58,581 nucleotides of DNA from a virus (Duplodnaviria > Caudoviricetes). Positions 3,860-57,729 of this stretch are shown in pieces (positions within the stretch are counted from its first letter, which is position 1; every line of letters begins with the position of its first letter). Position numbers and translations under genes: made by a program. Under the pieces are notes generated by a model that searched no databases, had not been told where the DNA came from, and saw nothing but the letters and a program-made list of their open reading frames with translations. The stretch is taken from positions 1 through 58,581 of IMG/VR virus record IMGVR_UViG_3300025096_001538; one strand, 5' to 3'.

Positions 3860-3910
3860 ATTACTATAACCTTTATTTATATATATTAAATTAAATTGTC
3901 AAAATGTCAA

Positions 3911-4693: not shown

Positions 4694-4697
4694 TTAT

Positions 4698-6443: not shown

Positions 6444-6487
6444 ATCATCTGTCCAATCTGTACTGTGTTCATATCATCTGTCCAATC
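6427..6487. repeat. Perfect 29-bp tandem duplication causing a frameshift
   Basis: ATCTGTACTGTGTTCATATCATCTGTCCA at 6427-6455 and 6456-6484, followed by ATC. Confidence 0.97.
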
Positions 6488-8947: not shown

Positions 8948-8957
8948 AATTTATTCC

Positions 8958-11900
8958 TTATCCTACTACAACGGCCGTACCTGGTGCATCCACTGGTATG
9001 TAATATCTTTTACCTTTACTATTTGTCTTAATCGGTTCACCTTTAGGTCCAGTCGCAAGTGATTCTTGTCCTGTTGGTGCTAAACCTATTGGTACTCCAT
9101 AATGTTTACCTATGGTTTGCTGTAAAACATCACCAACATAAGTAAATGAACATTGACAAGTAACATGCTTAGGTAATTGTAATCCATCTTCTATTTCCCA
9201 AGTACTTTGATCATCAACATCTACAGTTAAACTATCAAGAAATCCTGGACTTCTATTAAACATATCACCAATAGTCAATTCTATAAATGGTGCAACCATC
9301 ATATTACTACTAAATGATGGATAACATAACCCCACAAGATAATTTGTCTTTTGCCATAAAACTGACAATTCTTGCTTTGTCTTAGGATATATATCAAATG
9401 AAAAACTTAGTTTTCTTTCTGCTCCATTATAAACATAAACTTGATCTGGACGACCTATGTATCTTGTTCCACTCCATTCAGGTGTAATACTATCTGATAT
9501 ACCACTTAATATTGCTCTAAATACAATAAACTTATCATTAACAACATCTTTAAATTTAAATTTTATAAAATCACTTGTTTTATTTTCTGCTTCAGTTTGT
9601 TTATCAGTATAATCTTCTCCATATGGTATCATATTAACTTTATCATTAGTACCATGCTTGATTACTCCAAGTGTACTATCTACTACCTTATCTACATTAG
9701 GTTTACCTTGATTACCAATATCATCTACTACTTTCTTTGATTTATCTCTAATACCCTTTCCATCTTTCTCTGATAATTCATTTAACCAAGCTGGTCTTGC
9801 ATCTTTATCAAGTGCATTTAGATTCAATTCTCCTGCACTTCTTAAAGTTGTTTCATAGTTATATTTTCCGTGTTGTGCATCATCCTGAATTTGTCCTGGT
9901 CTTGCAAATGTAGGTGAAATTGGAATTGAACCATAAGCTAATGTAGAATACTCTTTAATATTATTTAAATCAAGTTGTTTGTTTACCGTTTTATCATTAA
10001 GAGTAAAAATATTAGTTTTTAAGTCCTTTAATTCTGTCTTTTTTAATTCTCCTAATCGTTCTTCACCTATATAATCTTTAAGTTTACTATTTTCTGTATC
10101 CCAAAACTTCCAAGAATAATTTATTAGTCGAGATAATGGATTCCAAACTTCTTCACCTTCAGGATCATTACTATAATCTGACCAATGTGGATTAACACTA
10201 ATACCATTTAACTTATTGTATGATTTTGTTAAAAAATCTGGACTCGTTCTCGGTAATGCCTTTGGAGCTCCATCAACTGTAGTATAAAGTGGATTACCAT
10301 GAACCCCATATAATTGACTTAATGAATCAAAAGCTGATACTTGAAGTGCAATATCTGTTGGTTCTTCACCCAAACTCTTAACATAATCAGTAAGAGAAAA
10401 ATTAGATTTTTTACCAATAGTAAAAGGACCACCCAAGTCACTCATTTTTTGGTGTATGTCAGCTACAGCACCTTTCCAATCTGCTTCTTTTTTCTCTGCC
10501 GCTGCAGCTTCCTCTACTTTAGCCTGTCGGTCAGCATTTGCTTGGGCAGCTGCTAATTCCTGATTACGTTTAGTTACTGCTTCTTGTCTTTTAAGGGCCG
10601 ATTGGAATGCTATACCAGCTGCGTCGATTTGTAATTCAACAAGAAGATTCCTTGTTTCAATGTCAACAAGAGGATTCACTGCACCTGGCACAGGTTCCAT
10701 ACTATTATGAAAACTATTATTACTCAAAGACTTATGCCAATTAAATGCCTTTTCATTTGTTGGATCAAAAAATATCCAATTTTCACCAAGTATACGTGAT
10801 ACAAACTCAAATCCAGTTTGTGGTGCATATCCTGTATCGGATGTTAATCCTGAATAAGGTAATGAAAAATAAGAAACAGGACCTCTTGGTGCACCTTTTC
10901 TTGCTCCCGAATCACTTGCCCAAGAAGTACCGAGTCCAACTGCACTTGTGGAAGAATGTTTACCAGTCGTAAAAGAAATAGTACCACCATCTGGACGATT
11001 TCCATCTCCTGGATAAATTAACATATCTGAATCTAATACTTCATTTCCCCCTTCCCAACTCAATTTTCTAATTGATTCAGGTATATCATCATAGGAAGTA
11101 GGATCTAAATATGCCCAATTAAAATTAACCATATCCGAATATGATGAACCTAAATCACCATAGGAAAAAGTATCCAATTCTGAATAGGAAGAGCGGTAAT
11201 AATACTTCTTTACACCTACTCGGTTTGGACTATGGGTGGCCTGTGTCCAAAAATTAGCATCCCAAAACTCACCTACAGGATCATGGAAATGAATCCCATC
11301 TACTCCAAAAGCACCCTTTTGACTAAATACTTCTTGAGTTGGCCATCTGGGAGTTCTACCAAATAAATAAGTTATTCCCCAATCAAATCCATCCATAAAC
11401 TTATTAGTTGTTCTTTTTTCAAACTCAATAAAATTCTTAGTTAATCTTGTTAATCTACTTTTTTCAAACTTAAACTCTTCACCACGATCTCCAAATCCCC
11501 AAATATCATCATCTCCATCATTTTTCCAATAATCTTCATATTTGTTAGGTGCAAATAATCCAAAAACAGTAAGATGTCTTTGCCAATGTACTTTAGGTAT
11601 TAATGATGCAGATAAACTAACTGGATTATAAAGTCTCGTTTCTGGACGAGGATTATAATCTTGTAAAAGATACTGCTTAGATGCCCATTGTTTACCAGAC
11701 TCGGTTTGTAACCAACTTTCAATTCTCAACGTATCTTCTGCGGCTCTTGCCATAGCCAAAGCCAAATATTCTACTGGAGCAAATGATTGTTTTGGATCTC
11801 TTGGAATATAAGTTTGTCCAATCGAGTGTCTTATAATTGGATGTGATTCATCCCATGTATTTATAACTTGTTCATCATCAGTACCAGCATTTATTGTCAC

Positions 11901-25938: not shown

Positions 25939-26328
25939 TTAAATTAAATCTTCAATCATTTCCTCAATTTTTTTATTGAGAATCTTTATTTCTTTTAATC
26001 CTTTTTTAATCAAGGTAGGTTTACCTTTATTTATACCCGAAAAAACCTTACCCATATTTACTTTCCAACTGTCTCCATAGATTCTTAACATTAAAAAGGA
26101 GCGTTTTTCATCACTCATTTTTTCATCAATAGTAGATTCAACTTTAAAAGGTGGTCTATCTATATCCGTATAAACTTTTCCTAACTCTACATCAGTTCCA
26201 CCCAATCTTTCAAATTCCGTAAGACCATCTGGTTCTCTACCTTTCATCACAGGTTTAGACCACCTTTTTGGTAAATCTCTGAATGAAGTATCATTCCATT
26301 CTTTTAATAATTCTTTTAGTTTAATCAT
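25939..26328 (-). CDS. Leader-bearing hypothetical protein (MIKLKELLKE)
   Basis: Shared leader; internal ESTIDE site. Confidence 0.75.
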   Translation of the reverse strand: MIKLKELLKEWNDTSFRDLPKRWSKPVMKGREPDGLTEFERLGGTDVELGKVYTDIDRPPFKVESTIDEKMSDEKRSFLMLRIYGDSWKVNMGKVFSGINKGKPTLIKKGLKEIKILNKKIEEMIEDLI

Positions 26329-26722
26329 TCTCAATAGTCTCCTTAACCCACTTATTTATTGGACTTGGTAAATCACCTACATCAAAATATCCCCAATCTA
26401 TATGTTCATGATTTATTCTTGGGATAAATTTTGTATTTCCCTTTAATACATATAAATAGAACTCTCCACCATTATCTTTCTTATAGGTACTATTTAAGTC
26501 TGGAATACCATTTAATACTATCTGTGTTTCTTCCGTAAATTCTCTAACTGAACCTGCTAATGGTTCTTCTCCAATTTGTATATGACCTTTAGGAATATGC
26601 CAAGTACCAGATTTCTCTCCTAAACATAATAATACTTTATCATTCCAATAATATAAAACTCCACCAGTATCATCAGAATCGTTCTCGTGTCCTTCAAATA
26701 ATAAATCTTTTAGTTTAAGCAT
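26321..26722 (-). CDS. Nudix hydrolase with leader MLKLKDLLFE
   Basis: Nudix box PKGHIQIGEEPLAGSVREFTEETQI; EHIDWGYF. Confidence 0.88.
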   Translation of the reverse strand: MLKLKDLLFEGHENDSDDTGGVLYYWNDKVLLCLGEKSGTWHIPKGHIQIGEEPLAGSVREFTEETQIVLNGIPDLNSTYKKDNGGEFYLYVLKGNTKFIPRINHEHIDWGYFDVGDLPSPINKWVKETIEND

Positions 26723-27098
26723 TTGAATTACCTGTTTCTTTTCTTACGAAATCTATAACATCACCCTTATCTCCATTACCTTTAAAGGCTATTTTCTTAT
26801 ATGCATCAACCCACATCTTATCACCTTCAATTTGAATATATGCAGTTTTCATACGACCCGTTTTTTCTACTTCTGACCAAGAAATAATTTTAACTCTTGG
26901 ATGTCCACCTATTGGCCATATTCTATTATACTCTTTATCTCTTGCAGTTATGGATTTATAAGTTTCTTTATATTTTGCTTCCCTTAAAGGTGTTTTTGGA
27001 TGTGTTTCCATTACATCTTTAAATGTGGGAAGTGGATCACCAAACTTTCTATCCCACGCGTATTTGCTTTCTTTTAATAATTTTTTTAATTTTACCAT
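26715..27098 (-). CDS. Leader-bearing hypothetical protein (MVKLKKLLKE)
   Basis: Shared leader; SKYAWDRKFGDPLPTFKDVM module also in 38140..38559; motif variant at 27119-27128 upstream. Confidence 0.75.
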   Translation of the reverse strand: MVKLKKLLKESKYAWDRKFGDPLPTFKDVMETHPKTPLREAKYKETYKSITARDKEYNRIWPIGGHPRVKIISWSEVEKTGRMKTAYIQIEGDKMWVDAYKKIAFKGNGDKGDVIDFVRKETGNSNA

Positions 27099-32646: not shown

Positions 32647-34293
32647 TTAAACGTAATTAATATCAGCTACGATTACCTTACCATAGAATTCAGGTCTTAC
32701 CATCTTCTTCGCGTATCGTGTCATTACACCCTTACGAGGAGTGAAATTAACAGGATCGTAAACAAGTGGAGTCATGATTAATGGTACATACGGTGCGTAT
32801 ACAGCTCCAGTTTCAAGGAAATTAGATCCTCTGAAACCAAGTAGGATGTCATTTTCTAACATATAAGGGTTTTTATAAACCGTAAATCTGTTATTCAATG
32901 CACCAACTTTCTGTACACCCATTGCATATGATGTATTGCTCGAATCACCATCTGAATCAGAAGCATATCCAGGAATACTTTCGATAACGGTTGCTGTTTC
33001 AGGTGAAACCACCATGAAATTAGCACCACCACGAAGAGTTTTCTGATGGATTGTGTTACTTACTGCTTGCAGTTTGTTTCCAAGAGTCTGGAACCACTCA
33101 CCTTTCGTGTAAGCGTTAGAGTTACCAGAAACTTCAGTAAATACTGAAGAAGCTGAATCATACTCAAATCCAGTCTTAGCTGACCAATACTCAGTCTTAG
33201 CGTCTGCGTTCTGTTTCAACATATCAAGGATTTCCAAATCAATTTCCATTGAAATGTACTCACTCAACATAGAAGTAAGTTCTGCTTCTGCATCAACTGA
33301 ATGATAAGCGTTAAGGTCTTGAGCTAACTCAGGAGTCCAGATAGCTTTAAGTTTACGAGTTTTCGCAACTATACTAACTGAACGAAGAGCTATATCAATC
33401 TCAGGAATATCAACATCGTCTGCTGAATTAGGTGAAGGAGTAGTAAAAGTACTCTGTTCAAAATCACCTCGTGATGTATCACCAGGTTGTTTATGAAATT
33501 TCACCCAAGACATCTTACCATTAGCACCACTTGAACCTGCACCTCTTACATAAAAATATATGTAAGTGGAATCAGTTGTAGTGTATGCTGGATAAGTTGC
33601 TGTAATGTTTGAACCACTAATTGCGAATGCCCTTGCACCTTCCCAATCTACATTAGACCCAGAGTTTAACTGAGTTTTTGCAATTCTCATCTTAAAGATT
33701 CGATTTGCTAATGTACCTGCGACTGCTACTGACGAACTCAATGAAGGTTCGAACTCAACATCTGCCCATGAAGCAGAAGTTCTTGTGATGGATCCAGATG
33801 GGATACCAGGAGATGTTTGGTCATTAATCGAATATCCAAACCTACCTGCACCATATAGACCACCAGCTGCATCTGCGTTAGATGCGGATGTGTTACCGTG
33901 TATATACGATCCCTTAGAGTGTTGAGCAGTTTGAGTTGTACCGTATTTAAAGTCAAGATAGAAAATCAGACCACTTGGTAGGTTCATAGGTTGAACACTA
34001 ACAAAGTCTTGTGCTGCTAACTCACCAAAGATTCTACGAACCAAAGGAAGTGCTACACCTGACCATTCTTCTGAATTCGAAGCTGTACCAGTTTTAGATG
34101 ATTCATCTATTAACTGACGAGCTTGGTTTTCAAGAAGAACTGCCATTCCATGTTGCTTATTTGTATCTTCAAGACCTTCAAGTAATCCAGTGGGCTCCCA
34201 CTTATTGACTAGCTTTTGGGTTTCTGCTAAACGACTGCGTTCGGAATCATAGCTATCCATCAGTTTTTCGATGGACTGTAAATTGTCTGCCAT
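32647..34293 (-). CDS. Major capsid protein (T4 gp23-like)
   Basis: LLENQ, LPLVRR, VSVQPMNLPSGLIFYL, AKTRKLKAIWTPELAQDLNAYH, DAEAEL, EIDLEIL, YAPYVPL, FTPRKGVMTRYA. Confidence 0.97.
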   Translation of the reverse strand: MADNLQSIEKLMDSYDSERSRLAETQKLVNKWEPTGLLEGLEDTNKQHGMAVLLENQARQLIDESSKTGTASNSEEWSGVALPLVRRIFGELAAQDFVSVQPMNLPSGLIFYLDFKYGTTQTAQHSKGSYIHGNTSASNADAAGGLYGAGRFGYSINDQTSPGIPSGSITRTSASWADVEFEPSLSSSVAVAGTLANRIFKMRIAKTQLNSGSNVDWEGARAFAISGSNITATYPAYTTTDSTYIYFYVRGAGSSGANGKMSWVKFHKQPGDTSRGDFEQSTFTTPSPNSADDVDIPEIDIALRSVSIVAKTRKLKAIWTPELAQDLNAYHSVDAEAELTSMLSEYISMEIDLEILDMLKQNADAKTEYWSAKTGFEYDSASSVFTEVSGNSNAYTKGEWFQTLGNKLQAVSNTIHQKTLRGGANFMVVSPETATVIESIPGYASDSDGDSSNTSYAMGVQKVGALNNRFTVYKNPYMLENDILLGFRGSNFLETGAVYAPYVPLIMTPLVYDPVNFTPRKGVMTRYAKKMVRPEFYGKVIVADINYV

Positions 34294-36126: not shown

Positions 36127-36810
36127 TTAATCGGTTTCGTTTTCACCACTCCAATTTGCATCAACATAATTAAAGAATTTTGATTTTTCTTCATCATCAA
36201 GTTGATCTGGTTCAGATACACCCCATTTTTCGAGTGCAGATTTGAAAAAATCTTCATATGAACCTTCTTGAACTGTGTCTGCTTCTAATTCATCACCATC
36301 TCTGTATGATTTACCTTCTGCTGTATCAACTGGAGTTGATTCATTTATTTCATAATATCTACCAAGAATGTGTCCCATATCTTCATATAGTCCACTCATT
36401 CTTTCTTGTAATGATTGAGCTTCTGTAGCAACTTTCTTAAATTGATTAGAAAGACCTGTTAATTCTTTCATATTACGATTTACCGTGATTTTATCAAACC
36501 AATCTTCGGTTTCTTGTAAGGTATGTTGTTTTGCAGTTTCTGCTAAACGAGAAAGTCTTTCTGCTAATTGTCTTAAATTACCTTCACGATAAATTTCATT
36601 TCCAAATGCATTGAAATTACCAACTTCACCCATAAACTCTTTTACATTTACTTTTTGAGTAGATTGTCCATAGACATCTTCTACTATATCAGTAAGTTTT
36701 GTTGATTTTTTTTGGGTTTTAAATCCCATATCAATATTTGAGAATGCATTGCGTGAAACCATTCCACCTAACATTGCATGTTCTTTAATTAAATCTTTTA
36801 GTTTAGCCAT
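36127..36810 (-). CDS. Leader-bearing head-region protein (MAKLKDLIKE)
   Basis: Shared leader; helical DWFDKITVNRNMKEL...LYEDMGHILGRYYEI core; C-terminal YEDFFKSALEKWGV...KSKFFNYVDANW module; motif at 36830-36839 upstream. Confidence 0.75.
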   Translation of the reverse strand: MAKLKDLIKEHAMLGGMVSRNAFSNIDMGFKTQKKSTKLTDIVEDVYGQSTQKVNVKEFMGEVGNFNAFGNEIYREGNLRQLAERLSRLAETAKQHTLQETEDWFDKITVNRNMKELTGLSNQFKKVATEAQSLQERMSGLYEDMGHILGRYYEINESTPVDTAEGKSYRDGDELEADTVQEGSYEDFFKSALEKWGVSEPDQLDDEEKSKFFNYVDANWSGENETD

Positions 36811-36838
36811 TATATGTCTCCTAATCAAATATAAATAT

Positions 36839-38139: not shown

Positions 38140-38559
38140 TTACCAAGTACTTCCATCATTCTTACGATGTTTATCTATTATCTTACTCCACACTTTATAA
38201 AGGCCATCTAATTCTTTTATAGCAGTATTAAGTTTTTTAGCTACTTTACTCATATGTGTATGATATTCTTTTGTTGCTGCTTGATAATTTGCTCTACTAT
38301 TCCAATCATACATATCGTTTTCTCTTGGACCATAATCAAGTCTTGGATATCCGCGTCCTATGTCTTTAAATGTTTGGCCCCAATCTCTGTCATAATCACT
38401 AACATCTTTTAATGCTTGGAACTTTGGTAAACTTCCTTCAGTTATTTGTTCTTTAGATTCTTGATGTTGTTTCATCACACTATCTAATGTAGGTAATTTA
38501 TCACCAAACTCTCTTTTGAGATATTTACTCTCGTGTAATATTTCTTTTAATTTTTTCAT
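38140..38559 (-). CDS. Leader-bearing hypothetical protein (MKKLKEILHE)
   Basis: Shared leader; internal EQITE; TAATG coupling to upstream gene. Confidence 0.75.
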   Translation of the reverse strand: MKKLKEILHESKYLKREFGDKLPTLDSVMKQHQESKEQITEGSLPKFQALKDVSDYDRDWGQTFKDIGRGYPRLDYGPRENDMYDWNSRANYQAATKEYHTHMSKVAKKLNTAIKELDGLYKVWSKIIDKHRKNDGSTW

Positions 38560-39026
38560 TATTTTAACTCCGTCCAATCTTGTGGAGAACCATATTCTGC
38601 TCTATAATACCACTTTTTCTCTTTAACATTCCATATGTAAAAAAATTCTTCACCACTATGAAACTTTATTTCATCTCTATCTTTCCATTTACTTGTAGCA
38701 TTACCTTTCTCTCCTCTATCACGACCATAAAATACAGTTACATCTTTATCAGGTTTATCAAAAGAGTGGTCTTTACTACCCTTAATTTTTTTACCAAGTG
38801 TAGAAATACCCTGTTTACCAAGTTTCATTAATTCCTTTACTTTCGCTGAATTATTATAATACCTTTTCAAGTGTTTTCCTACCCAAGAAGGATAACCATC
38901 GTAGTGTCCATAAGTAGATAGTACTTTACCACTTGGAGCTTCAATACCAACACCCCAACGAGTTCCCTCATTGATAATATTCTGAACTTCTTCCTTGATA
39001 ATTTCTCTTAATCTTGATGCTTTCAT
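38559..39026 (-). CDS. HxDGYP-family phage protein behind a 20-aa leader
   Basis: IINE-GTRWGVGI...STYGHYDGYPSWVGKHLKRYY...VFYGRDRGE...EEFFYIW. Confidence 0.7.
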   Translation of the reverse strand: MKASRLREIIKEEVQNIINEGTRWGVGIEAPSGKVLSTYGHYDGYPSWVGKHLKRYYNNSAKVKELMKLGKQGISTLGKKIKGSKDHSFDKPDKDVTVFYGRDRGEKGNATSKWKDRDEIKFHSGEEFFYIWNVKEKKWYYRAEYGSPQDWTELK

Positions 39027-41555: not shown

Positions 41556-42176
41556 TTACTCTCCACGAATAATATCGTTTATTATACTTTCGACTTTACA
41601 ATACTTACCACAGGTTCTACCTTCTGTAATTGGTATTTCGTTTCCAACACTTTCTTTCATGGGATATAGGAAAGCTCCGTGTGTGGATGGATTTGATACG
41701 AAATCGAATGCTATCAATTCGAAGTCATCTCCTACTTTTTGACCTTCTCCTTCTTCAAGTGGTGTAACTGAACCCATACCACGAGAACTTATACCTAATT
41801 TAATACCTGCTTTAAATAATTCTGTTAATATATTACCACTTGGTGTTCCAAGAACCTCAACCGTACCGACTAAGTTCTTACCTTCCCAATGCATTTCTGT
41901 AATATTATGAGATACATTTTGTAAATTGACTACGGAACTCTCTGGATGGTCTAATTCACCCATTGCTCGTTTCTGTTTAATGAAACTCTCATCATATTTT
42001 TGAGATTCTCGTGCCAAAATACCATGTGGATAAACTCTACCATTCTGGTTTTTTGCATCTGACCTCTGTAAGACACCATGAACCACTAAACGACCATGAT
42101 TTTGTTTAATTGATTCGTTTATTTGTTCTGCTGTTACCTCAAATGGTAAATAATCTACTATTAATTGTTTTGACAT
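41556..42176 (-). CDS. Prohead protease (T4 gp21-like)
   Basis: KNQNGRVYP, AMGELDHP, VSHNI, TPSGNIL, LGISSRGMGS, DFVSNPSTHGAF. Confidence 0.95.
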   Translation of the reverse strand: MSKQLIVDYLPFEVTAEQINESIKQNHGRLVVHGVLQRSDAKNQNGRVYPHGILARESQKYDESFIKQKRAMGELDHPESSVVNLQNVSHNITEMHWEGKNLVGTVEVLGTPSGNILTELFKAGIKLGISSRGMGSVTPLEEGEGQKVGDDFELIAFDFVSNPSTHGAFLYPMKESVGNEIPITEGRTCGKYCKVESIINDIIRGE

Positions 42177-42706: not shown

Positions 42707-43051
42707 TTAATCCTCCTTCATAAAATCAAATTCTTGATCTTTAAAGATTTGTTCAAATTCTTCAACATAGTCCTTTGCTAAGGACTTTCTTTGTCTTTTT
42801 GGGAAAACATCCAAGTGATTTCCACCATAAGACCTAACATATCGTTTAGCACCATCATCAATCAGATAAATAAATGCCTTTGAAGCAAGACCTTTACGAT
42901 ATTTTCCTTGTTTCTTCTTTTTTGACAAGTTTTTCAATATCGGCATATACTTTTGTCGATAAAGATTTGCATCATTGTCAATATAAAGTTTTAATTCTTT
43001 CATTTCGTCTGAGAGGTTTTTCTCAACTAATAAATCTTTAAGTTTTATCAT
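42707..43051 (-). CDS. Leader-bearing hypothetical protein (MIKLKDLLVE)
   Basis: Shared leader followed by ELKLYIDNDANLYRQ...YLIDDGAKRY domain. Confidence 0.75.
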   Translation of the reverse strand: MIKLKDLLVEKNLSDEMKELKLYIDNDANLYRQKYMPILKNLSKKKKQGKYRKGLASKAFIYLIDDGAKRYVRSYGGNHLDVFPKRQRKSLAKDYVEEFEQIFKDQEFDFMKED

Positions 43052-49398: not shown

Positions 49399-50078
49399 TA
49401 ATTAACTCCTTTTGGTAATAAGTCAACCAACTTTCCACCTTTCCATTCTCTACCTTTAACTTTACCCATTATTCTGTGGTCTTTCCACTTACCCCACAAT
49501 TTTTTATTATTCGCGAAAACTTTTTGTCCACTTGGATTCACTTGTCTATATCCACTATCGCTTCCCATTTTCTTTGAACCAGGTTCAGGCGTTGATGGGA
49601 TTCCACCACTTTTAGTTCCTTCAGGCGGTGTAGTAGGTTTAACTAATGTTTCTGAAGTAGAATAAAAATTTGCCGTTTCAGGTGGAATAGTATATTCTTG
49701 TTTTCTATGAAATCCGTGTATACCATAAACCCTTTGTTTAGGTGATAATGGTGGTGTATCATCTCTAAGTTCTTCTGCCTTAACTTCTGAATTACCATCG
49801 GGATCACTTAAATATTTATATAATTTACCTGCATCTCTTTTTGCCCGTCTTTCATTGTTCAAACTATCTGGTCCACCATAGATATTATCTGATGCTGGAA
49901 AATCAATTTGTTGCATTCCACGAGTTAAACTTGCAGGTCCTACATATCGTCTTTCACCTCGTTTGGTATATAAACCATCTGGCCATGCATCACCAATATC
50001 TGTCGTGCCAGTGCCTCCACCCCCAGAATATGAGCCCTCCTTAATGATTTCCCATAATCCCTGTTCAAATGTGTTCAC
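49398..50078 (-). CDS. Hypothetical Gly/Pro-rich protein
   Basis: GTG at 50078 overlaps the upstream TAG (TAGTG) with GGAG 6 nt before; EIIKE site near the N-terminus. Confidence 0.7.
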   Translation of the reverse strand: MNTFEQGLWEIIKEGSYSGGGGTGTTDIGDAWPDGLYTKRGERRYVGPASLTRGMQQIDFPASDNIYGGPDSLNNERRAKRDAGKLYKYLSDPDGNSEVKAEELRDDTPPLSPKQRVYGIHGFHRKQEYTIPPETANFYSTSETLVKPTTPPEGTKSGGIPSTPEPGSKKMGSDSGYRQVNPSGQKVFANNKKLWGKWKDHRIMGKVKGREWKGGKLVDLLPKGVN

Positions 50079-50803
50079 TATGCTCTCCAACTTATCATAA
50101 GGTTTTGTCCGTCAAGTTTTTCCGTTACATTATCTTCTCGGTGTAACTCTCCACCTAAACCTCTTTCTATGATATTCTTCAAATCTTTAAATGTTAAATC
50201 TTTATCATCAAAAGGATGTGCCATATGTCCGTATGCTCCACCCTCTGTAATTAATTCTCTAAGTTCATCACTCCACCAATCTTTTGTTAATGGATTATAT
50301 TTTTCAACATGAAGTCTTGGTCGTTTCTTATCACCATCAAAATTCTCATCAGAATCGGCCGATTTTGTTGATGCATCAGGACCAACTCCGGCTGCCATTG
50401 GTGGACCGGCTATTAATTGATCTTTATCAACTCCCATCCATTGTATTACCTTCCAACCTAAACTATCCATTACATTTCGTAAAGTCTTTTTATACTTTTT
50501 TACCTCTCCGTGAGATATTGGATTTGTTGCCCTGTAAGACATAGTATAATCTTCTTCTGGATCCATTGCTCCTTTACTTAATATATACTGGACTACTTTC
50601 CATCCTAATTCGTTCTGCATTGATTCAACCCATTTTTCCGTTTCTTGTTTATATTGGGTTAAAGTTCTGAAAAATGTTGGAGGTCCGTCATCAACTGGTG
50701 CATTTACACCCATAGTTCCTTCTTTTAAAATCTCTGTAATATCATTTTCAACTAAAAAATCTCCTATGACATCACCACTAAATTCTTTTAAATAATCTCT
50801 CAT
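50078..50803 (-). CDS. Modular protein ending in the N-terminal fragment of a ligase-like nucleotidyltransferase
   Basis: LITE-GGAYGHMAHPFD...TEKLDGQNLMISWRA-stop; KxDG is ligase motif I and lies 13 residues from the C-terminus. Confidence 0.65.
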   Translation of the reverse strand: MRDYLKEFSGDVIGDFLVENDITEILKEGTMGVNAPVDDGPPTFFRTLTQYKQETEKWVESMQNELGWKVVQYILSKGAMDPEEDYTMSYRATNPISHGEVKKYKKTLRNVMDSLGWKVIQWMGVDKDQLIAGPPMAAGVGPDASTKSADSDENFDGDKKRPRLHVEKYNPLTKDWWSDELRELITEGGAYGHMAHPFDDKDLTFKDLKNIIERGLGGELHREDNVTEKLDGQNLMISWRA

Positions 50804-51360
50804 CTTGTTTCAACTTTATTTTTATCCAACCACCATTGAACTTTATTAACAACTACATCAAAATTTCTGTGGCTTCTACTCAAATCAAATGAACTCCAAT
50901 AATCTTTTACCAAATAATATGCTGGTTCTACATCTTTTGAACCAGGTCTGATATTTCCTACAACTTGATTTGATTGCATATCTGAATCTACATGATATTT
51001 CAAATAATCATAATCAAATGGATTTGAATAATAATCATTTTCATAAATCCATTTTAAAATCGGGTCAAACTTTACGCCCTTTAAGAACCAATCAGCAGGT
51101 CCTCTAAATTTACTATGTCCCCAACCTTGTACATAAGCGTAATACTGATACATTATGTTAGTAGGATATCTTTTATTACCTGGCCTTCCCTTGTAATCTA
51201 ATTTATTAAACCCCTCTTTCATAACTTCCTTACAAAGTTTTTTTGTACCAGATGGTATCTTACTTTTTTTACCAGTTTCTTTTTGAGCCTGTTTAATAAT
51301 TTTCTCAAAATCTGATGTAGTTACTATTCGTTCTACAATAAGTTCTTTTAATTTAATCAT
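50800..51360 (-). CDS. Leader-bearing hypothetical protein (MIKLKELIVE)
   Basis: Shared leader; ATGA coupling. Confidence 0.75.
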   Translation of the reverse strand: MIKLKELIVERIVTTSDFEKIIKQAQKETGKKSKIPSGTKKLCKEVMKEGFNKLDYKGRPGNKRYPTNIMYQYYAYVQGWGHSKFRGPADWFLKGVKFDPILKWIYENDYYSNPFDYDYLKYHVDSDMQSNQVVGNIRPGSKDVEPAYYLVKDYWSSFDLSRSHRNFDVVVNKVQWWLDKNKVETR

Positions 51361-51617
51361 CTTTTTTCCAAGTCAAATGCTCTGGTCAACATAGCGCCGG
51401 CATGTTGAAGTTCAAGACGAGCTTTTTCATACTTCTTAAAGTATCTCATTAAAGTTCTATTCTTACTCTTTTTAATATCATCCTCAAGTTCATACCAAAG
51501 TCGTCCATCTCGTGATTTATGAATATAATCACTACCAACTTTTAGTAATTTTTGGTGATTCCATGAAATATCTGAAAGGTCTACCTTTTCTTCTAATATT
51601 TTTTTAAGTTTAATCAT
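51357..51617 (-). CDS. Leader-bearing hypothetical protein (MIKLKKILEE)
   Basis: Shared leader; TAATG coupling. Confidence 0.75.
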   Translation of the reverse strand: MIKLKKILEEKVDLSDISWNHQKLLKVGSDYIHKSRDGRLWYELEDDIKKSKNRTLMRYFKKYEKARLELQHAGAMLTRAFDLEKR

Positions 51618-51889
51618 TATCTTTTGTAATAATCTTCAAAACGTTTGTAAGCTGCCCGTTCATCAAATTTACCCTGACGTTTTACACCAATTTTTATTGC
51701 ATCTATAAATGCATGCTTCAAACCAGGAGAATTAAAATCTGACATCATTTTATTGATGTTATCGATTGACCTTCCAATTCCTGCAATGGCGTTTGTTAAT
51801 GGCTTCTTAAGCCGTTTAGCCTGTTTTTCATCTGCGGCGGCCACGCTATCTTCATCAGCCTCACTCATCATATCTTTTAATTTAATCAC
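51617..51889 (-). CDS. Leader-bearing hypothetical protein (MIKLKDMMSE)
   Basis: Shared leader; GTG start with GGAG; motif at 51919-51928 upstream. Confidence 0.75.
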   Translation of the reverse strand: MIKLKDMMSEADEDSVAAADEKQAKRLKKPLTNAIAGIGRSIDNINKMMSDFNSPGLKHAFIDAIKIGVKRQGKFDERAAYKRFEDYYKR

Positions 51890-51926
51890 TTATTATCTCC
51901 GATATATACTGATACACTTATAAATA

Positions 51927-52496
51927 TTAAACTTCTAAACTATTTAGTTTTTCTTCAACCTCTGTTTTCATCTTATTCAATTCTTCGAGAGCTTCTTTAG
52001 ACATAGTTTCAACTTGCTCTTTATTTTGACTCCACTTTTCTTTTTGTAATTCAACTTCTTTAATTCCAACAGAATCAAAAACTTCTACTGGCTTTGAAGC
52101 TTCTTCTTTCCAGTCCTCTATACTCCCAATTTGGTCTTTTATATAGGAAAGTTGATTGTTTAACACCTTTTTTTCTTCCCATTCCTCATATTTACCCTCA
52201 ATTCGAAGCTTATTTTCAAATTTTACTTGGCAATCAAAACAATGATTGTGTAATCTATACATTTTGTCATCTAATCGTCTTTTCATCACCTTTTTACACT
52301 CAGGACAAAACCAAGGAGTCTTTGCTTCCTTTAAAGCGTCCATTCGGTCATTTTTTCGTTCTCTTTCTGCCTTTATTTCTTCCTGTCGTTTCTTTTTTTC
52401 TTCTAAATCTTCCATATGTACAAAAATTCGTTTATCTGGTGTTTTACCACTTAAAATATCTTGTCTTGCCTTTACATGCCTTTGATGTTCATTCAT
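51927..52496 (-). CDS. Zinc-binding coiled-coil protein
   Basis: PWFCPECKKVM...HNHCFDC. Confidence 0.7.
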   Translation of the reverse strand: MNEHQRHVKARQDILSGKTPDKRIFVHMEDLEEKKKRQEEIKAERERKNDRMDALKEAKTPWFCPECKKVMKRRLDDKMYRLHNHCFDCQVKFENKLRIEGKYEEWEEKKVLNNQLSYIKDQIGSIEDWKEEASKPVEVFDSVGIKEVELQKEKWSQNKEQVETMSKEALEELNKMKTEVEEKLNSLEV

Positions 52497-52499
52497 AAA

Positions 52500-52763
52500 C
52501 TAACTCCTCTGTAACGAATCAAGTTTAAACTTAAATCTTAGTTCTTCAAGTTCTTGATCTCTTTTCATTAATTCTATTTCGGCCTGAATATTTTTAATTT
52601 GACCTTGTTTTTCTATTTCTTCTTCCAATGATGTTACTCTACTCTCCAATTTGTACCATCCACCACCTAATGCGCCCAACAATCCTATAATATTAACAAT
52701 AAACTTAATATTACTCATCTTTTTCATCTTAAAGATTTCTTGTATATCTTCGAAATCTTCCAT
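52500..52763 (-). CDS. Small TM plus coiled-coil protein
   Basis: FIVNIIGLLGALGGGWY then heptads. Confidence 0.6.
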   Translation of the reverse strand: MEDFEDIQEIFKMKKMSNIKFIVNIIGLLGALGGGWYKLESRVTSLEEEIEKQGQIKNIQAEIELMKRDQELEELRFKFKLDSLQRS

Positions 52764-55621
52764 TAGAATGTCATAAGTCCTGTTATTTGATTAATCGGTG
52801 CAAATGCTCCTGTAAATTTAAATGTTTTTCCATTATACTTGAAAACTATTCCTTCACTTGGAACTATTGCATCTAATCCACCTATCCTATTCAATTTATC
52901 CAACTGTAATTTTAATGTATTGAGTTTTTTCAAATCTCCACCACTTCTAACATTCTTAATTGCTGCATCTAATTGTTTTTTTACTCGTTGAACCGTAGAA
53001 TCTGGACTTGCTGCTAACCAACCACTTACATTTTTCATTATTTCTGAACCAACCTCAAAAAATAACTCCTCAAATGGTTTCATATTCTTTTTAACCATTT
53101 TTGCGTGGTCTGCTTTATCGGTAGATAATACCCAATCTAAAAATTTTGGATGGTCTTTTAAATCTTTTCTAATCATTGGTATTTTATATGACTTATCAAA
53201 GAATGCCCATCTCTTTGTAAGTTTTTCTAATATTTTATTGGGTATCTTTGGATAATCAGTTTGACTGGCCCCATTCATAATCCATTCTTGCCAAAACATT
53301 TGATGATACATCGAAAGAGTATCATTATCACCTAAACTATATTCCTTTTGTAATTTATTTAATTTACTTATAAAATACTTTTTCTTCTTATCAAAATCTT
53401 GATGTTTAGGTACGGTTAAAAAGTTTGGTTTTCCAATCTTATAATGTTTCTGTATATTTTTATTTACTTGTTTAATCATACCAGCTAACATTCTTGCACT
53501 ATCTTTGACCTCACCAATTGCATTTCCATCATCATCATATTCTAATGCCCCATGAAATACAATTTCGGCTTTGTCATAATTTATAACATTGGATGACTTA
53601 GGCCACATAACTTCAAGATTCATCCAAGCTTTACCATTCTTAAATATCTTATTTCGTTGTTTATCCGAAAGTGAACCAATGGCCCTTTCCAAATCTTTCA
53701 TAGCAAAACTAAATGCGTCCGCGATATCACCCCTACCTTTAAACTTAGAAATTATTCCACTTGTACTTAGTGCAGTTTTACCACCATCCTTTAAGTGTCC
53801 TTTGTTTCTGGCAGCTACTAATTTTCCACCAGTTGCTTCTGTAATCTTTTGTTCCTTCCAATTAAATAATTTCTTAAATTTATTATGCATCATTAAAAAG
53901 ACACCTTCATCCCAATAACCAAATGCATCTTTAAATAATTTTTTCCTTTCTTCATCCGAAAATTTCTGTGAACCAAGTAATTCTCTCATTACCGTTCCAC
54001 TAACTTCCTTTCCACCAACCTTAACTGATTGATGTGGGGCAGTCATAAAATATCCGTGTTCCTCATATCCCTTTAGATTATTCTTATTCTTTTTATAATC
54101 TTGGAAATATGATAAACCACCATCTTTCCTTTTACCACCTGCCAATCTTCCGGCATCCTTTTGTCCGAATATATATATCACGGCAGTGGTCTCGGAATCG
54201 TATTTTTTTAGCACATTATTTGCCACCAATGGAACTTTTTCCTTGATAATACGATTTTTAGGTACACCCATCTTGGTCATATGACGAAGCTTCTCTCTGT
54301 AATTCATAGGATGTTTAGGTGGTTTTTTGATATCTGATGTTGTGATGTAAGCGTCATCTACCCTTGACTTTAACCACTTGTAAGTCTTTAAGTGATGTGG
54401 GCCAAATGGTTGATATCTACCACCATAGATACCTATTACTTTTTTAATTTTTTTATTATCTTCTGATAACCACTCGTCAAAAACTTCCATAGCCTTTCTC
54501 ATACCACTTGTCTGTGATTTATGATGTTTCGCTCTATTATACATCGTTTCCACAATTTCTTTTTGTTCTGATTTAGACCTATTCGTAATTGACTTTATAG
54601 TTTTATTTGCAGTTCTAACTGAATCATAACCAATTCCCTTTATATGATCCAATTTAGTTCGTGGCCAATAATATTGTTCTCCTGCCTCGTTAAGTTGTTC
54701 TAATTCATGTTCTTTTAGAACTGGATTTACAAGTTCCCCTACAAGTGCACTATATTTAGGTTTTTTTGTAGTTGGAACGAATTGTTTATATTTTTTATCT
54801 GGAGTATGTTCATATTCTTTTACAATAAAACTAAGTTTAGACTTATAATCATTTGGAAGTGTATTTTCTATACCAAGAAACTTTACTGCTCCTGGAACAA
54901 GATAAAGTATCATTTCCCTTTTATTTAAGTTCATAATTAATTGACTTGAAGTCCAAAGTTTATTTTGTGCTCTAACTAAATCATACTTGGGTCCCTTATC
55001 TTGTATATGATTATAAAACGCAGGAAATAATTCTTTATAATGTGGTGTCTGGTGTACAACATTTAATGCATTCATCAATCTTAACTCTGAAGATAATTTA
55101 TCATTTCCTCTTTGATAACCTTGTTCAGTATGTTCTATTCCGTGATTAGTTCTTACTATTGGTTCTTTACTTAAATCTTTTATCTTTACTACAGGCTTAA
55201 CTCTACTTGTATTTTCTATCACTACGAGTTTTTTACCATCACCTACCAATGTATGACCTTTAATCCCACCATGATATGATACCAATGATTTTACAACATC
55301 GTGTAAAGTTGTCTTACGAAGTGCCTCTCTAATTCTTGCACCATCTTTGGACATCGCTTTCTTTTTCTTTGACTTATCAAAATCTTTCTCATCTCGTTTT
55401 ACGAATAATGCAGAGTTTACCAAACCGATTCCATGAGAATTCATTCCCTCTGACCAATCTGTATCTTGGTCTATTACATAGCATAACTCAACACCATAAC
55501 CAGTTAGTTCCCTAACTACTTTAAGATTCGGATTATAATTTCTATCTCGGTTTTTACCGATAACCATATCATTACCGAACATTGATGCCACTGCTATACA
55601 TTCTTCTATGTGTTTCTTCAT
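52763..55621 (-). CDS. Four-module polyprotein: Ntn-hydrolase-like, small helical domain, HIGH-type nucleotidyltransferase, C-terminal fragment of a ligase-like domain
   Basis: IEE-CIAV...GKNRDR...WSEGMNSHGIGLVNS...RTNH; QLNE-...TMYNRAKHH; WLSE-...IYGGRYQPFGPHH...SGTVMR; KITE-ATGGKLVAARNK...MNLEV...EGIVF...FKFTG. Confidence 0.7.
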   Translation of the reverse strand: MKKHIEECIAVASMFGNDMVIGKNRDRNYNPNLKVVRELTGYGVELCYVIDQDTDWSEGMNSHGIGLVNSALFVKRDEKDFDKSKKKKAMSKDGARIREALRKTTLHDVVKSLVSYHGGIKGHTLVGDGKKLVVIENTSRVKPVVKIKDLSKEPIVRTNHGIEHTEQGYQRGNDKLSSELRLMNALNVVHQTPHYKELFPAFYNHIQDKGPKYDLVRAQNKLWTSSQLIMNLNKREMILYLVPGAVKFLGIENTLPNDYKSKLSFIVKEYEHTPDKKYKQFVPTTKKPKYSALVGELVNPVLKEHELEQLNEAGEQYYWPRTKLDHIKGIGYDSVRTANKTIKSITNRSKSEQKEIVETMYNRAKHHKSQTSGMRKAMEVFDEWLSEDNKKIKKVIGIYGGRYQPFGPHHLKTYKWLKSRVDDAYITTSDIKKPPKHPMNYREKLRHMTKMGVPKNRIIKEKVPLVANNVLKKYDSETTAVIYIFGQKDAGRLAGGKRKDGGLSYFQDYKKNKNNLKGYEEHGYFMTAPHQSVKVGGKEVSGTVMRELLGSQKFSDEERKKLFKDAFGYWDEGVFLMMHNKFKKLFNWKEQKITEATGGKLVAARNKGHLKDGGKTALSTSGIISKFKGRGDIADAFSFAMKDLERAIGSLSDKQRNKIFKNGKAWMNLEVMWPKSSNVINYDKAEIVFHGALEYDDDGNAIGEVKDSARMLAGMIKQVNKNIQKHYKIGKPNFLTVPKHQDFDKKKKYFISKLNKLQKEYSLGDNDTLSMYHQMFWQEWIMNGASQTDYPKIPNKILEKLTKRWAFFDKSYKIPMIRKDLKDHPKFLDWVLSTDKADHAKMVKKNMKPFEELFFEVGSEIMKNVSGWLAASPDSTVQRVKKQLDAAIKNVRSGGDLKKLNTLKLQLDKLNRIGGLDAIVPSEGIVFKYNGKTFKFTGAFAPINQITGLMTF

Positions 55622-57333
55622 CTCCGTCCACCCTTATCAAAATCTTTTGAGAATTTTTTGAGTTTATCAAATGCTCTAAACTTTTTCATCTTTTCTTGTT
55701 TATGCCATTTCATCTTATCAAATACTTTCATTCTCATATGTTGTTTTACTATCCAATAAATATCAAGAACATTGCCTCCCATAGATTTTATCCACTTGGC
55801 ATATTTCTTAACGAGTTTTGCTGATACATGCTCGTGTCCGTAATGTGTCCAAAACCCTTTCTTTGGATGTAGTTTTGCAGTTGAGTCTTTACCTATATCG
55901 TGAAATAGAGCGGCAAGTGCAAAATCTATATCACCAGTTTTAAGTGCTCTGTTAGTAACGGCAATCGTGTGTTTTAACACATTACCTTCTGGATGAGCAT
56001 CTCTCCGCTGGTCGTAATTTTTGAGATTGTAAACTCTTTTCTTTAAATCACTTGGTAGTGCATTATAAATGTCTTTGAATTTCTTCGGTTTTTTTCTCAT
56101 TGCTATTTCGTTCATTTTAAGTTTCTTTCTCAACTTTTCAATTTCCCTTTGAACTTTCTTTTGGGCTGAACTTCCTGGCATCATTTTCATTGCCATTGTA
56201 TAAAGTTTATACAACTTTGCCTTATCACTATTTTCATTTAAGAATTTATCTTTTTCCTTGTTTTGTATTGCTTTACCAATATCCTTCCCCTTTAAATCAC
56301 CCGAAACATCACTACCTCTTACCGATAGTTTAAATCTAACTAACTTTTTAAAATCTTTTCCAATGTACTTACCCCATTTAAGAATTTGACCTTTACTCAA
56401 TTTAGTCTTTTCTTGAAACTTCTTAATCATAAAGATATTCTCAGGTTTAAAATTCTGTAAAGAATTCAAAAACTGAATATCGACAATTTCTTGATTAGGA
56501 TAGGCTAAACCATTCAATTTCCGTAATGAATTTACATCATTTTTTCGTAAAATCCAAGATAAAAATAAAATATAATCGTTTTCATTTATGTACGGAACTT
56601 TAACTTGAAATCCAGGTAATATCTGTTTTGTAAATCCTAATGAATCAGCAAGTTGTAAATACTTTTTAGTTGATTTTGCCTTTTTGATTGACTTGACAAA
56701 TTCATCTCGTATCCTTTCTGTACTTACACCTTTAAGACTTGGATTTTGTCTTAAAGCCTTTTCTGTTTCTTTCCCTAACTTACCACCAAGTGCCCCCTGA
56801 AATCTTAATGCTCTCATCTTTCTTAACGGATCTTCATCAAATCTTTCGACAGCATTTCCAACCGTTCTGATTTTTTTCCTTTTCAAATCTGCTATTCCAC
56901 CAACCAAGTCTACAATCTCTCCCCTATCCATATCGTAGAACAACGCATTTATGGTTAAATCTCTCCGTTTAACATCACCTTCGATGTCGGTATAATCAAC
57001 TGAACTTGGGCGTCTCCCTTTACCAATATCCTTTCTGAATGTTGCTATTTCGTGTCCAGCCACTATCACGACACCGAATTGTTTTCCAACCTCTACGGTT
57101 TTCAATCCACCTTTTTTTGCTATTGCCAATACCTCGTCAGGTTTAGCGTCGGTGGCCAAATCAAAATCTTTTGGGTTCTTTCCTAATATTGCATCCCTAA
57201 CTGCTCCACCAACAACAAAAAGTTTTTTCTTGTTTTTCTTAAAAAGTTTGTGTATATTCTTTATGTCAGAAGGGATGTTGAGCCTAAATTTAGAATACTC
57301 ATTCAACGGAATTAAATTAGAAAGATAAATCAT
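55618..57333 (-). CDS. CCA-adding enzyme / poly(A) polymerase family protein with C-terminal HD domain
   Basis: VVGGAVRD, KDFDLAT, EIATFR, DVKRRDLTINAL, RFDEDPLRKMRALRF; HPEGNVLKHT, ALFHDIGK, GHE, QHM. ATG 57333 is in a TAATG overlap. Confidence 0.9.
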   Translation of the reverse strand: MIYLSNLIPLNEYSKFRLNIPSDIKNIHKLFKKNKKKLFVVGGAVRDAILGKNPKDFDLATDAKPDEVLAIAKKGGLKTVEVGKQFGVVIVAGHEIATFRKDIGKGRRPSSVDYTDIEGDVKRRDLTINALFYDMDRGEIVDLVGGIADLKRKKIRTVGNAVERFDEDPLRKMRALRFQGALGGKLGKETEKALRQNPSLKGVSTERIRDEFVKSIKKAKSTKKYLQLADSLGFTKQILPGFQVKVPYINENDYILFLSWILRKNDVNSLRKLNGLAYPNQEIVDIQFLNSLQNFKPENIFMIKKFQEKTKLSKGQILKWGKYIGKDFKKLVRFKLSVRGSDVSGDLKGKDIGKAIQNKEKDKFLNENSDKAKLYKLYTMAMKMMPGSSAQKKVQREIEKLRKKLKMNEIAMRKKPKKFKDIYNALPSDLKKRVYNLKNYDQRRDAHPEGNVLKHTIAVTNRALKTGDIDFALAALFHDIGKDSTAKLHPKKGFWTHYGHEHVSAKLVKKYAKWIKSMGGNVLDIYWIVKQHMRMKVFDKMKWHKQEKMKKFRAFDKLKKFSKDFDKGGRR

Positions 57334-57729
57334 TACCACTTCCAACCTAACATTGTCTTAGTTCTAAGATAATGTTTTGCTGCCTCTTCCATTCCATACT
57401 CTTTATCTATCTTTGGATGCCAAGTATCTTTAATCTTTATCTATCTTTGGATGCCAAGTATCTTTAAAGAACTTCATTGGCATTCCCTTGAAAGCATATT
57501 TACTTGAACCAGCCACCATTGTTTGCCAATCTTTTACTATCTTCCTTTTATCTACTATCCAAACATGCTTATATCTTCTACCATTAGAAATCCATTTATT
57601 CTGTACTGAACCAAATACAACTTTTGCCTTTTTATCTTTTTGGTTAGTCATGTAATATTTCCAAGCCCACGAAACACATTCACCACAAGCGATAACTTTT
57701 TCTGATATTAGTTGTCTTAGTTTAATCAT
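57333..57729 (-). pseudogene. Leader-bearing (MIKLRQLISE) Cys-His-Asp transglutaminase/papain-like protein, truncated by a 34-bp duplication
   Basis: GECVSWA...KHVWIVD...KDW. Removing one repeat copy restores ...KIDKEYGMEEAAKHYLRTKTMLGWKW-stop, which couples to the CCA gene start. Confidence 0.6.
57400..57467. repeat. Perfect 34-bp tandem duplication causing a premature stop
   Basis: TCTTTATCTATCTTTGGATGCCAAGTATCTTTAA at 57400-57433 and 57434-57467. Confidence 0.97.

Follow-up and report, generated by a model that had tools for sequence, protein, structure and literature searches.

In phages, a single conserved enzyme can be encoded by two genes at one locus. Such are the 'fractured genes' of marine metagenomic phages and the endonuclease-split nrdA, whose parts, in the available text of the work describing them (PMC2677866), keep their original order and orientation and are separated by a split intein and/or a homing endonuclease. 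Here we describe a ligase-like domain that is likewise encoded in two parts at one locus of a marine phage, on the IMG/VR fragment IMGVR_UViG_3300025096_001538. The whole stretch analysed, 58,581 nucleotides or 58.6 kb, is called the window and amounts to an estimated ~32% of a genome. In contrast to the fractured genes, the order of the two parts is reversed, five unrelated genes lie between them, there is no intein or endonuclease, and each part is fused to another protein. The N-terminal part closes an open reading frame (ORF) that we call ORF-B and the C-terminal part closes ORF-A, 2 kb upstream; every gene of this region is on the minus strand.

The packaged proteins of phage T4 offer a second comparison. 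In the accessible parts of two articles (PMC9026906; PMC5694885), the prohead protease gp21 is described as cleaving after the Glu of L/I-X-E, and the former, as far as available, presents the first 10 residues of internal protein III as a capsid-targeting sequence (CTS) directing proteins to the head, residues 8 and 10 deciding processing. With the T4 internal proteins and Alt, as these sources portray them, the window shares a T4-type protease and capsid genes, [LI]xE tripeptides before each module and leaders on nine small genes. Each packaged protein of T4 is complete, whereas the window precursors, by analogy, would each deliver part of one enzyme.

Polyvalent phage proteins are multidomain, encoded beside virion genes and predicted to be packaged, processed and injected against host defence, according to the available text of PMC5512222. 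The polyproteins of 400-1900 amino acids in the family studied here fit this theme as outlined there. Polyvalent proteins string whole domains together, however, and in the available portion of that article one catalytic domain spread over two proteins is not among them. Phage RNA-repair sets, composed of ligase, kinase, phosphoesterase and nucleotidyltransferase, counter host tRNA-cleaving defence, as stated in the accessible part of PMC7824862. Split phage genes, packaged and processed proteins and ligase-fold enzymes were known already; what is new is the reversed order and an intein-free break inside a catalytic fold behind protease-type sites. Full-text literature searches, judged by titles and abstract openings, found no reverse-order or intein-free split phage ligase among the 10 rows listed for each.

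One domain encoded by two genes

A preliminary description, made from the sequence alone, had proposed a ligase-like domain distributed over two genes in reversed order, each half behind an ITE tripeptide. Both propositions hold: contiguous homologs join the two segments, and ITE stands at residues 593-595 of ORF-A and 185-187 of ORF-B (Table 1). The 54-residue tail of ORF-B with its motif I agrees with the ORF coordinates and translation. The 357-residue tail of ORF-A stands as well; the range once given for it together with KITE does not, 53836 being the first base of the Ala codon after ITE and KITE lying just outside. An overlap of the ORF-B stop with a GTG led by a Shine-Dalgarno sequence had also been noticed, and is seen as a TAG (50078-50080) sharing one base with a GTG that is itself preceded by GGAGAG.

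The N-piece on ORF-B carries motif I; its E, K, D and G are the same in all 31 rows of one alignment and vary hardly at all in another of 67 rows. ORF-A on its own lacks motif I; its C-piece contains ARNK, LEV (motif III-like), FHG (IIIa-like), EGIVF (IV-like) and K-x-F-K-F-TG (V-like) elements together with a helical insert. In an alignment check, both pieces of the window retain every family-invariant residue.

A profile of eight contiguous domains matches the window in two places only, with no third copy. Its positions 57-409 match ORF-A (52766-53830, E 1.4e-196) and its positions 1-60 match ORF-B (50072-50251, E 1e-33), where the final residues are matched by reading through the stop. The two matches are thus complementary, far beyond what chance would give.

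Elsewhere the domain is contiguous. By tblastn, both pieces are found in one ORF in three GenBank phage records, Microcystis phage Mel-JY01 (639 amino acids), LR756500 (a stand-alone protein of 421 amino acids) and LR756508 (915 amino acids), all of which read ...EK-x-DG...I-[TS]-[WF]-K-x-G-x-L-x-[AT]-ARNK... uninterrupted; the literature searches found no paper on Mel-JY01. A scan of IMG/VR yielded 79 related loci, on each of which the segments were mapped. Fifty-six show the split of the window (type 1), 11 have the domain in one ORF (type 2), four present a second split form (type 3), six lack the ligase (L062 type) and two are edge fragments with the N-piece only. The stretch ISW-x-x-G-x-L-x-AARNK, given in the preliminary description as normally contiguous, is thus indeed in one ORF in the three phage records and in 11 of the 79 loci.

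Compared with 1.84 billion representatives, the contiguous-domain profile retrieved 2098 clusters at E <=0.001. Of the 150 representatives listed, nearly all are matched over the full profile, in most cases where a protein of 400-1900 amino acids has its C-terminus; among these 150, only P0134 and P0136, which are devoid of the N-piece, have the split-type ORF-A architecture, and a few shorter rows have the look of truncated gene calls. P0317, P0319 and P0322-P0325 were considered as stand-alone C-pieces and rejected, being truncated or mis-started gene calls that begin inside the domain, for instance at the Met of LMISW. A search with ORF-B gave 275 homologs; among the 120 listed, 119 are 241-285 amino acids long, and the remaining one (P0114, 394 amino acids, 70% identity over the whole query) is a fusion with a NUDIX domain (PF00293).

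Altogether, the window is well supported as a real, conserved and intein-free split of one RNA-ligase-like domain, on the strength of these sequence comparisons. With the motif I lysine and the remainder of the domain on separate proteins, an active enzyme must be rebuilt from two proteins.

Table 1. Features of the split ligase locus and of related genes in the window (positions of the window; aa, amino acids)
Feature	Position	Strand	Remarks
ORF-B, 241 aa	50078..50803	-	carrier module B_N, ITE, ligase N-piece, stop
B_N carrier module, ORF-B residues 1-184	50252..50803	-	no known family
ITE, ORF-B residues 185-187	50243..50251	-	candidate cleavage site before the N-piece; 14/14 homologs
Ligase N-piece, 54 aa, ORF-B residues 188-241	50081..50242	-	GGAYGH...EKLDGQNLMISWRA
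Motif I EKLDG, ORF-B residues 228-232	50108..50122	-	putative adenylated Lys229
Intervening gene 5, 186 aa	50800..51360	-	leader MIKLKELIVE
Intervening gene 4, 86 aa	51357..51617	-	leader MIKLKKILEE
Intervening gene 3, 90 aa	51617..51889	-	10-aa leader MIKLKDMMSE
Intervening gene 2, 189 aa	51927..52496	-	Cys-rich (CPEC...CFDC); also 3' of the ligase gene in contiguous relatives
Intervening gene 1, 87 aa	52500..52763	-	predicted membrane helix
ORF-A, 952 aa	52763..55621	-	polyprotein-like: N-terminal domain, cytidylyltransferase-like domain, ITE, ligase C-piece
Ligase C-piece, 357 aa, ORF-A residues 596-952	52766..53836 + stop	-	ATGGKLVAARNK...FKFTG...
ITE, ORF-A residues 593-595	53837..53845	-	candidate prohead-protease site directly before the C-piece; [IL]TE in every split-form ORF-A seen
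Nucleotidyltransferase domain, ORF-A residues 391-592	53846..54451	-	CTP_transf_like (HxGH type, GRYQPFGPHH)
N-terminal domain, ORF-A residues 1-390	54452..55621	-	related to hypothetical proteins of Chryseobacterium phages MA9V-1/2
CCA-adding tRNA nucleotidyltransferase with HD domain	55618..57345	-	upstream neighbour of ORF-A
T4 gp23-type major capsid protein	32647..34293	-	E 4.6e-75
T4 gp21-type prohead protease (Peptidase_S77, PF03420)	41556..42176, domain 41655-42098	-	E 8.3e-28, above cut-off
Leader ORFs (nine)	51617-51889, 51357-51617, 50800-51360, 42707-43051, 38140-38577, 36127-36828, 26715-27098, 26321-26722, 25939-26334	-	10-residue leader

Fold of the domain and place of the break

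An AlphaFold model of the contiguous domain of a related locus (L079), computed with 67 diverse rows, reached a predicted local distance difference test score (pLDDT) of 94.6 and a predicted TM-score (pTM) of 0.89; 8 close sequences gave a pLDDT of 43.4. In an exhaustive structural comparison of this model, RNA ligases rank first. The seven best long matches have Z 7.8-9.1 over 180-200 residues at a root-mean-square deviation (rmsd) of 3.9-4.9, led by the Naegleria ligase 5cot (Z 9.1, 186 aligned residues, rmsd 3.9) and followed by T. brucei REL1 (1xdn, 8.7), Trl1 (9r3w, 8.5; 6n0t, 8.3), T4 Rnl2 (2hvq, 8.2; 1s68, 8.1) and 9qw7 (7.8). T4 Rnl1 (9do4) reaches 7.3, and DNA ligases and capping enzymes score Z 5-7. 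The structurally aligned part comprises model residues 5-405, interrupted by a helical insert of ~170 residues (about 200-370).

Conserved residues appear in the motif order of ligases, which in L079 numbering are E44-K45-x-D47-G48, E129, F148-H149-G150, E380-G381-x-V383 and K392. The last four groups, with E129 in LEV, lie on strands of the model, the motif names being given by pattern and not by active-site superposition. The domain shares with the RNA ligases (Naegleria/Deinococcus Rnl5, T. brucei REL1, T4 Rnl2, fungal Trl1 and T4 Rnl1) the fold (Z 7.3-9.1 over 176-200 residues), the KxDG motif I, the conserved Glu, aromatic, EG and Lys elements in the order of the putative motifs III, IIIa, IV and V, and an RNA-repair gene context. 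It differs from them by having neither an OB nor another known C-terminal domain, by the insert of ~170 helical residues between the IIIa-like and IV-like elements, by its usual place as last module of a polyprotein and, in the window, by its division over two genes.

Several results weigh against this assignment. The Z values of 7-9 are only moderately above the level reached by unrelated models, and no ligase family of Pfam or NCBIfam matches ORF-A, ORF-B or L079. Searches of PDB sequences with profiles of 8 and 67 sequences returned chance-level matches only (patatin, E 0.12; ribosomal eS6, E 0.016). Foldseek against the PDB gave no match at E <=0.001; its top 44 rows are all ligases, at E 0.0098 or weaker and TM 0.17-0.25. 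The sole Pfam hint is RNA_ligase (PF09414) on the related locus L060, at E 0.025 and 15.1 bits against a cut-off of 27, over 32 residues covering motif I. Because this match is below the cut-off, we call the domain ligase-like and file it under no named Rnl family. The RNA-ligase-like fold of the preliminary description is nonetheless borne out at moderate Z, and the models support a ligase-type nucleotidyltransferase fold, closest to RNA ligases.

In the L079 model, the break falls in the turn (residues 57-58) of a beta-hairpin between strands 49-56 (...NLMISW) and 59-63 (KLIAA), inside the catalytic fold and 12 residues past the active-site lysine. The new ends are variable: type-1 N-pieces end in RA, RT, RN, KA, KV or REK, with TAA, TAG or TGA as stop, and type-1 C-pieces start with ATGGKL, KL, GL or RL. 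From the sequences, such variation is as expected of free termini and speaks against splicing chemistry.

Conservation of the split

Wherever a type-1 locus extends 3.6 kb or more upstream of ORF-B (23 of 23), it has a C-piece devoid of the N-piece 1262-2121 nt upstream, and a second N-piece is present in no type-1 locus. Misassembly, against which a check of reads had been proposed earlier, is excluded. In each of four marine runs (4 of 4) drawn from 4 studies, Logan contigs span the ORF-A junction with 0-2 differences, and 56 of the IMG/VR contigs share the layout. Among the 32 listed of 760 Logan pieces, one (X4) bridges the ORF-B stop and one (X2) the ORF-B ITE site, and none of the 10 Logan joints listed links 50081 to 53836. 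As the best Logan holder may be the source sample itself, the IMG/VR contigs are the stronger independent evidence. Around the two junctions, the search for repeats found only short ones at chance level, beyond the shared ATTACAGA codons.

Selection was assessed by the ratio of nonsynonymous to synonymous substitutions (dN/dS), taken as the mean of pairwise Nei-Gojobori estimates over type-1 loci, the pairs being phylogenetically non-independent. The N-piece is the most constrained segment, with dN/dS 0.055 over 35 distinct DNA sequences, ahead of the C-piece (0.11, 19 sequences), the transferase domain (0.15, 21 sequences) and B_N (0.27, 38 sequences). Both ligase pieces are under strong purifying selection. 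A degeneration of the halves, which the preliminary description had envisaged as a refutation, is found in neither: their ratios are low and the family-invariant residues are kept.

Predicted association of the two pieces

The complex of the 357- and 54-residue pieces of the window was predicted in three runs, with an alignment of 31 rows for each piece and three controls. The interface score ipSAE was 0.70, 0.72 and 0.69, against 0.01 for the best control, so that the prediction proposed earlier as a check came out with docked pieces; in calibration, this ipSAE mark was attained by 58 of the 80 complexes with solved structures and by 2 of the 110 pairs that were mismatched. The docking runs share >=90% of contacts, with partner pLDDT of 80-83. 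The closest contacts join residues 50-51 of the N-piece, on a strand, to residues 6-7 and 70-72 of the C-piece. These predicted contacts would rebuild the hairpin and the adjacent motif-III-like strand of the contiguous fold.

It counts against this evidence that the alignments were self-built and include rows of contiguous homologs, and that halves of one fold tend to pass such predictions. The predicted docking is to be read as likeness to the intact fold, not as binding. From the models and the purifying selection we infer that the two pieces would re-form the ligase fold non-covalently, in the manner of fragment complementation, to give an active ligase.

Proposed processing in the phage head and alternative explanations

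In the window, ITE directly precedes both pieces, and [LI]xE is found ahead of both halves in every split form. Within the family, 130 of 168 members have [LI]xE immediately ahead of GG-x-x-GH. Judging from the sequences, the deletion in the C-piece gene would have taken exactly GGAYGH...ISWR-x and left the [LI]xE site in place, in both split types. Residues 1-4 of the L079 model (IAEG) have pLDDT <50 and are not packed in the fold. A [LIM]xE occurs within the first 16 residues of 129 of 201 Met-initiated family proteins, a count made without a matched control. Where the first two domains of ORF-A meet, the leader typical of transferase-first polyproteins recurs internally (...EWLSE, then DNKKIKKVIG).

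Nine small ORFs of the window, all on the minus strand, carry a 10-residue leader M-x-K-L-K-[DEK]-[LIM]-[LIM]-x-E, in three cases starting at an internal Met; three of the nine sit between the two ligase pieces. With L, I or M at position 8 and E at position 10, as in the T4 CTS, they are candidates for packaged internal proteins and would form a large set. The prohead protease itself ends in ...IPITE followed by ~20 residues, consistent with C-terminal self-processing at a like site.

Other features tell against processing. Of the 168 members, 38 have a residue other than Glu ahead of GG (17 Met, 16 Cys, 5 other) and keep the L or I at -3, so that the tripeptide may be partly structural. The N-termini of ORF-A (MKKHIEE-C) and ORF-B (MRDYLKEF...) differ from the MxKLK leader of nearby genes. 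With 10 occurrences in ORF-A and 7 in ORF-B, [LI]xE is common by chance, and the ITE at ORF-B residues 22-24 is conserved in 5 of 14 homologs only. On the circumstantial evidence of protease and capsid genes, retained [LI]xE and CTS-like leaders, we consider head cleavage of both precursors plausible, at slightly less than an even chance. Reassembly in the head, which the preliminary description had proposed to occur only after proteolysis, is likewise plausible.

The route that we propose begins in a marine T4-like lineage, where the first 54 residues of the domain would have been precisely removed from a ligase-bearing polyprotein gene, ORF-A, to be encoded ~2 kb downstream as the C-terminal tail of ORF-B. 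Both precursors would be built into the prohead core, and a cut after Glu would free the 54- and 357-residue pieces in a confined space, where they would pair. The re-formed enzyme would accompany the DNA on delivery and belong to a kit for RNA or tRNA repair or counter-defence, including the neighbouring CCA-adding enzyme and, in relatives, the kinase and exonuclease modules of the same polyprotein. A role in RNA or tRNA repair is our best guess by analogy, based on the CCA-adding neighbour and, in homologs, the P-loop kinase of L075 and the RNase_T module of L060. As a whole, this explanation, an intein-free split ligase whose pieces pair after head cleavage and are delivered with DNA, seems to us reasonably probable; catalysis, cleavage, head location and the RNA substrate are the parts that we infer. 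The contig covers ~32% of a genome, and an intact second ligase may lie elsewhere, which would tell against it.

Complementation confined to the capsid might also serve as a control: a harmful or mistimed ligase would stay silent, its lysine peptide on a separate carrier, until both precursors come together at high concentration and the prohead protease cleaves them, and would then be injected ready-made for RNA repair or counter-defence. We put this forward tentatively, as a rather doubtful extension.

The pieces could instead form the ligase as uncleaved full-length proteins in the host cytoplasm, with [LI]xE as inherited linker or structural residues and neither packaging nor processing, which we judge unlikely. 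Upstream domains can be borne by the N-termini of the pieces, as contiguous relatives have large N-terminal extensions on the same domain; the L or I at -3 is conserved where Glu became Met or Cys, and the tripeptide is frequent by chance. However, [LI]xE has been kept before the C-piece of both split types though its usual N-piece is gone, and the short stand-alone members of the family have leaders of 10-65 residues that mostly end in [LI]xE. The genes, moreover, belong to a head module near many 10-residue leaders (L, I or M at 8, E at 10), on a contig that encodes a T4-type prohead protease.

Loss of enzymatic function, the C-piece being non-catalytic, for example RNA-binding, and the N-piece a conserved tail with another role, appears very unlikely. 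It would accord with an ORF-A that has no motif I of its own, and with the L062-type contigs (6 of 79), which keep B_N and the transferase domain without the ligase. Yet the N-piece is the most constrained segment, its E, K, D and G being kept in the translations of all 35 distinct DNA variants seen, the C-piece has all family-invariant residues, the pieces co-occur in 23 of 23 loci, and the sheet seen in the contiguous fold is restored at the predicted interface.

A rejoining of the halves by protein trans-splicing, RNA trans-splicing or DNA rearrangement, or a layout due to assembly error, is extremely improbable even though the intein-C-like segments of P0265 and P0327 make intein-mediated splitting seem to occur in the family, since neither end has intein blocks and ORF-B stops right after ISWRA, the C-piece start is devoid of a conserved Cys, Ser or Thr nucleophile, end residues and stop codons vary, no junction-flanking repeats exist beyond the shared ATTACAGA codons, DNA contigs of four runs bridge the junction without joining 50081 to 53836, and 56 independent contigs have the same layout.

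If the pieces reassemble, the locus encodes a naturally occurring ligase of two chains, with the AMP-accepting lysine on a peptide of 6 kDa; this split ligase would be made without inteins and conserved in an abundant marine phage group. Polyprotein processing in the head would then lessen the requirement that a domain be encoded in one piece, and the locus would be a natural template for split-ligase tools. The ligase-like family is large, with about 2100 clusters at 50% identity and no Pfam or NCBIfam profile match in this analysis, and it usually ends phage polyproteins that contain nucleotidyltransferase, kinase or exonuclease modules too.

Possible origin of the split and architecture of the family

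The carrier module B_N was encountered in four settings. It occurs alone, ending in ...WWKTNLLED (L062 type); as first module of a polyprotein of 1111 amino acids (L060 7965-11297, P0335) found at the map position of ORF-B; between transferase and ligase (L003, L077, L083); and fused to the N-piece only, as in type 1. The L060 polyprotein consists, in order, of B_N, an RNase_T-type exonuclease (PF00929, E 8.8e-6), the transferase and a contiguous ligase, and contains two copies of the motif SPEWWK-x(3-4)-[LI]-x-E, one closing B_N and the other ahead of the ligase. A deletion between such motif copies in an L060-type gene would fuse B_N to the N-piece. The sequence of ORF-A ahead of its junction resembles the contiguous genes of L078 and L079. 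A tree of C-pieces places the type-1 clade (100/97) as sister group beside L078, L079, L082 and P0121 (92/91).

In type 3, known from four loci, the break point is that of type 1 and LNE precedes both pieces; an ORF of 81 codons, made of a leader (...PLTKEWW...ILNE) and the N-piece, lies ~1 kb downstream of the C-piece gene. Its C-piece groups with the contiguous P0123 and P0125 (95/90), away from type 1 (100/97). Going by these branch supports, either C-piece genes have lost the N-piece twice, or C-piece modules have been exchanged after one split. The presence of one hairpin break in two lineages of C-pieces, be it by repeated origin or by fixation, may point to selection for a divided domain, not to a tolerated accident.

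Other members of the family deserve mention. L075 encodes a polyprotein of 1377 amino acids (5118-9248) with an N-terminal P-loop kinase (Zeta_toxin/AAA_33 profiles), transferase and contiguous ligase, a layout that recalls RNA repair enzymes. In the L062 contig, which lacks the ligase (3727-5430, 5439-6338, 6342-7376 and 7986-8555), the transferase is fused to another KxDG region (NEKVDG), and the KxDG protein is followed by two ORFs with GDIDxxV motifs, without family match, that we read as Pol-beta-type nucleotidyltransferases; the stand-alone B_N of this type ends just after LLE. P0265 and P0327 start with a segment of ~38 residues ending in HN directly before TDGQ; by its look, this segment is the C part of an intein, perhaps of a split one, inserted at the active site. 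Their TDGQ begins right after the motif I lysine of an intein-less relative (L092 9836-11101, 88% identical). For the P0265 genome, viral and metagenome scans gave only intein-less relatives.

Gene neighbourhood and further observations

The window comes from a marine lineage of T4-like phages. The nearest matches of its large terminase are in Microcystis phage Mel-JY01 (55.5%) and Flavobacterium phages vB_FspM_immuto (55.4%), and its sequence occurs in marine metagenomes, as found in the sequencing runs that hold it. PHROGs offered no family for ORF-A, ORF-B or the small neighbours of both, and ESM Atlas gave nothing usable for B_N.

Upstream of the C-piece, the transferase domain of ORF-A is preceded by WLSE (residues 385-387 being LSE). 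Its Pfam match is below cut-off in the window (E 0.0013) and above cut-off in homologs, and it has weak matches to nicotinamide mononucleotide (NMN) adenylyltransferase. Residues 1-390 of ORF-A have no Pfam match; their nearest ESM Atlas clusters include families of N-terminal nucleophile (Ntn) hydrolases (AAT 18%, CBAH 16% of members), with scores of 0.84-0.87 that serve as leads only. The N-terminus of ORF-A reads MKKHIEE, then Cys, then ...GKNRD, and cleavage behind IEE would leave Cys as the first residue, as in Ntn hydrolases.

Towards the other end of the contig, an ORF of 581 amino acids (4698-6443, minus strand) without Pfam match has EEKLDG near its N-terminus and is perhaps another KxDG enzyme, perhaps a chance likeness. 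At this far end are also encoded, on the minus strand, a ThyX-type thymidylate synthase (3158-3859, PF02511, E 5e-36) and a RimK-like ATP-grasp protein (1627-2538, PF08443, E 4e-48).

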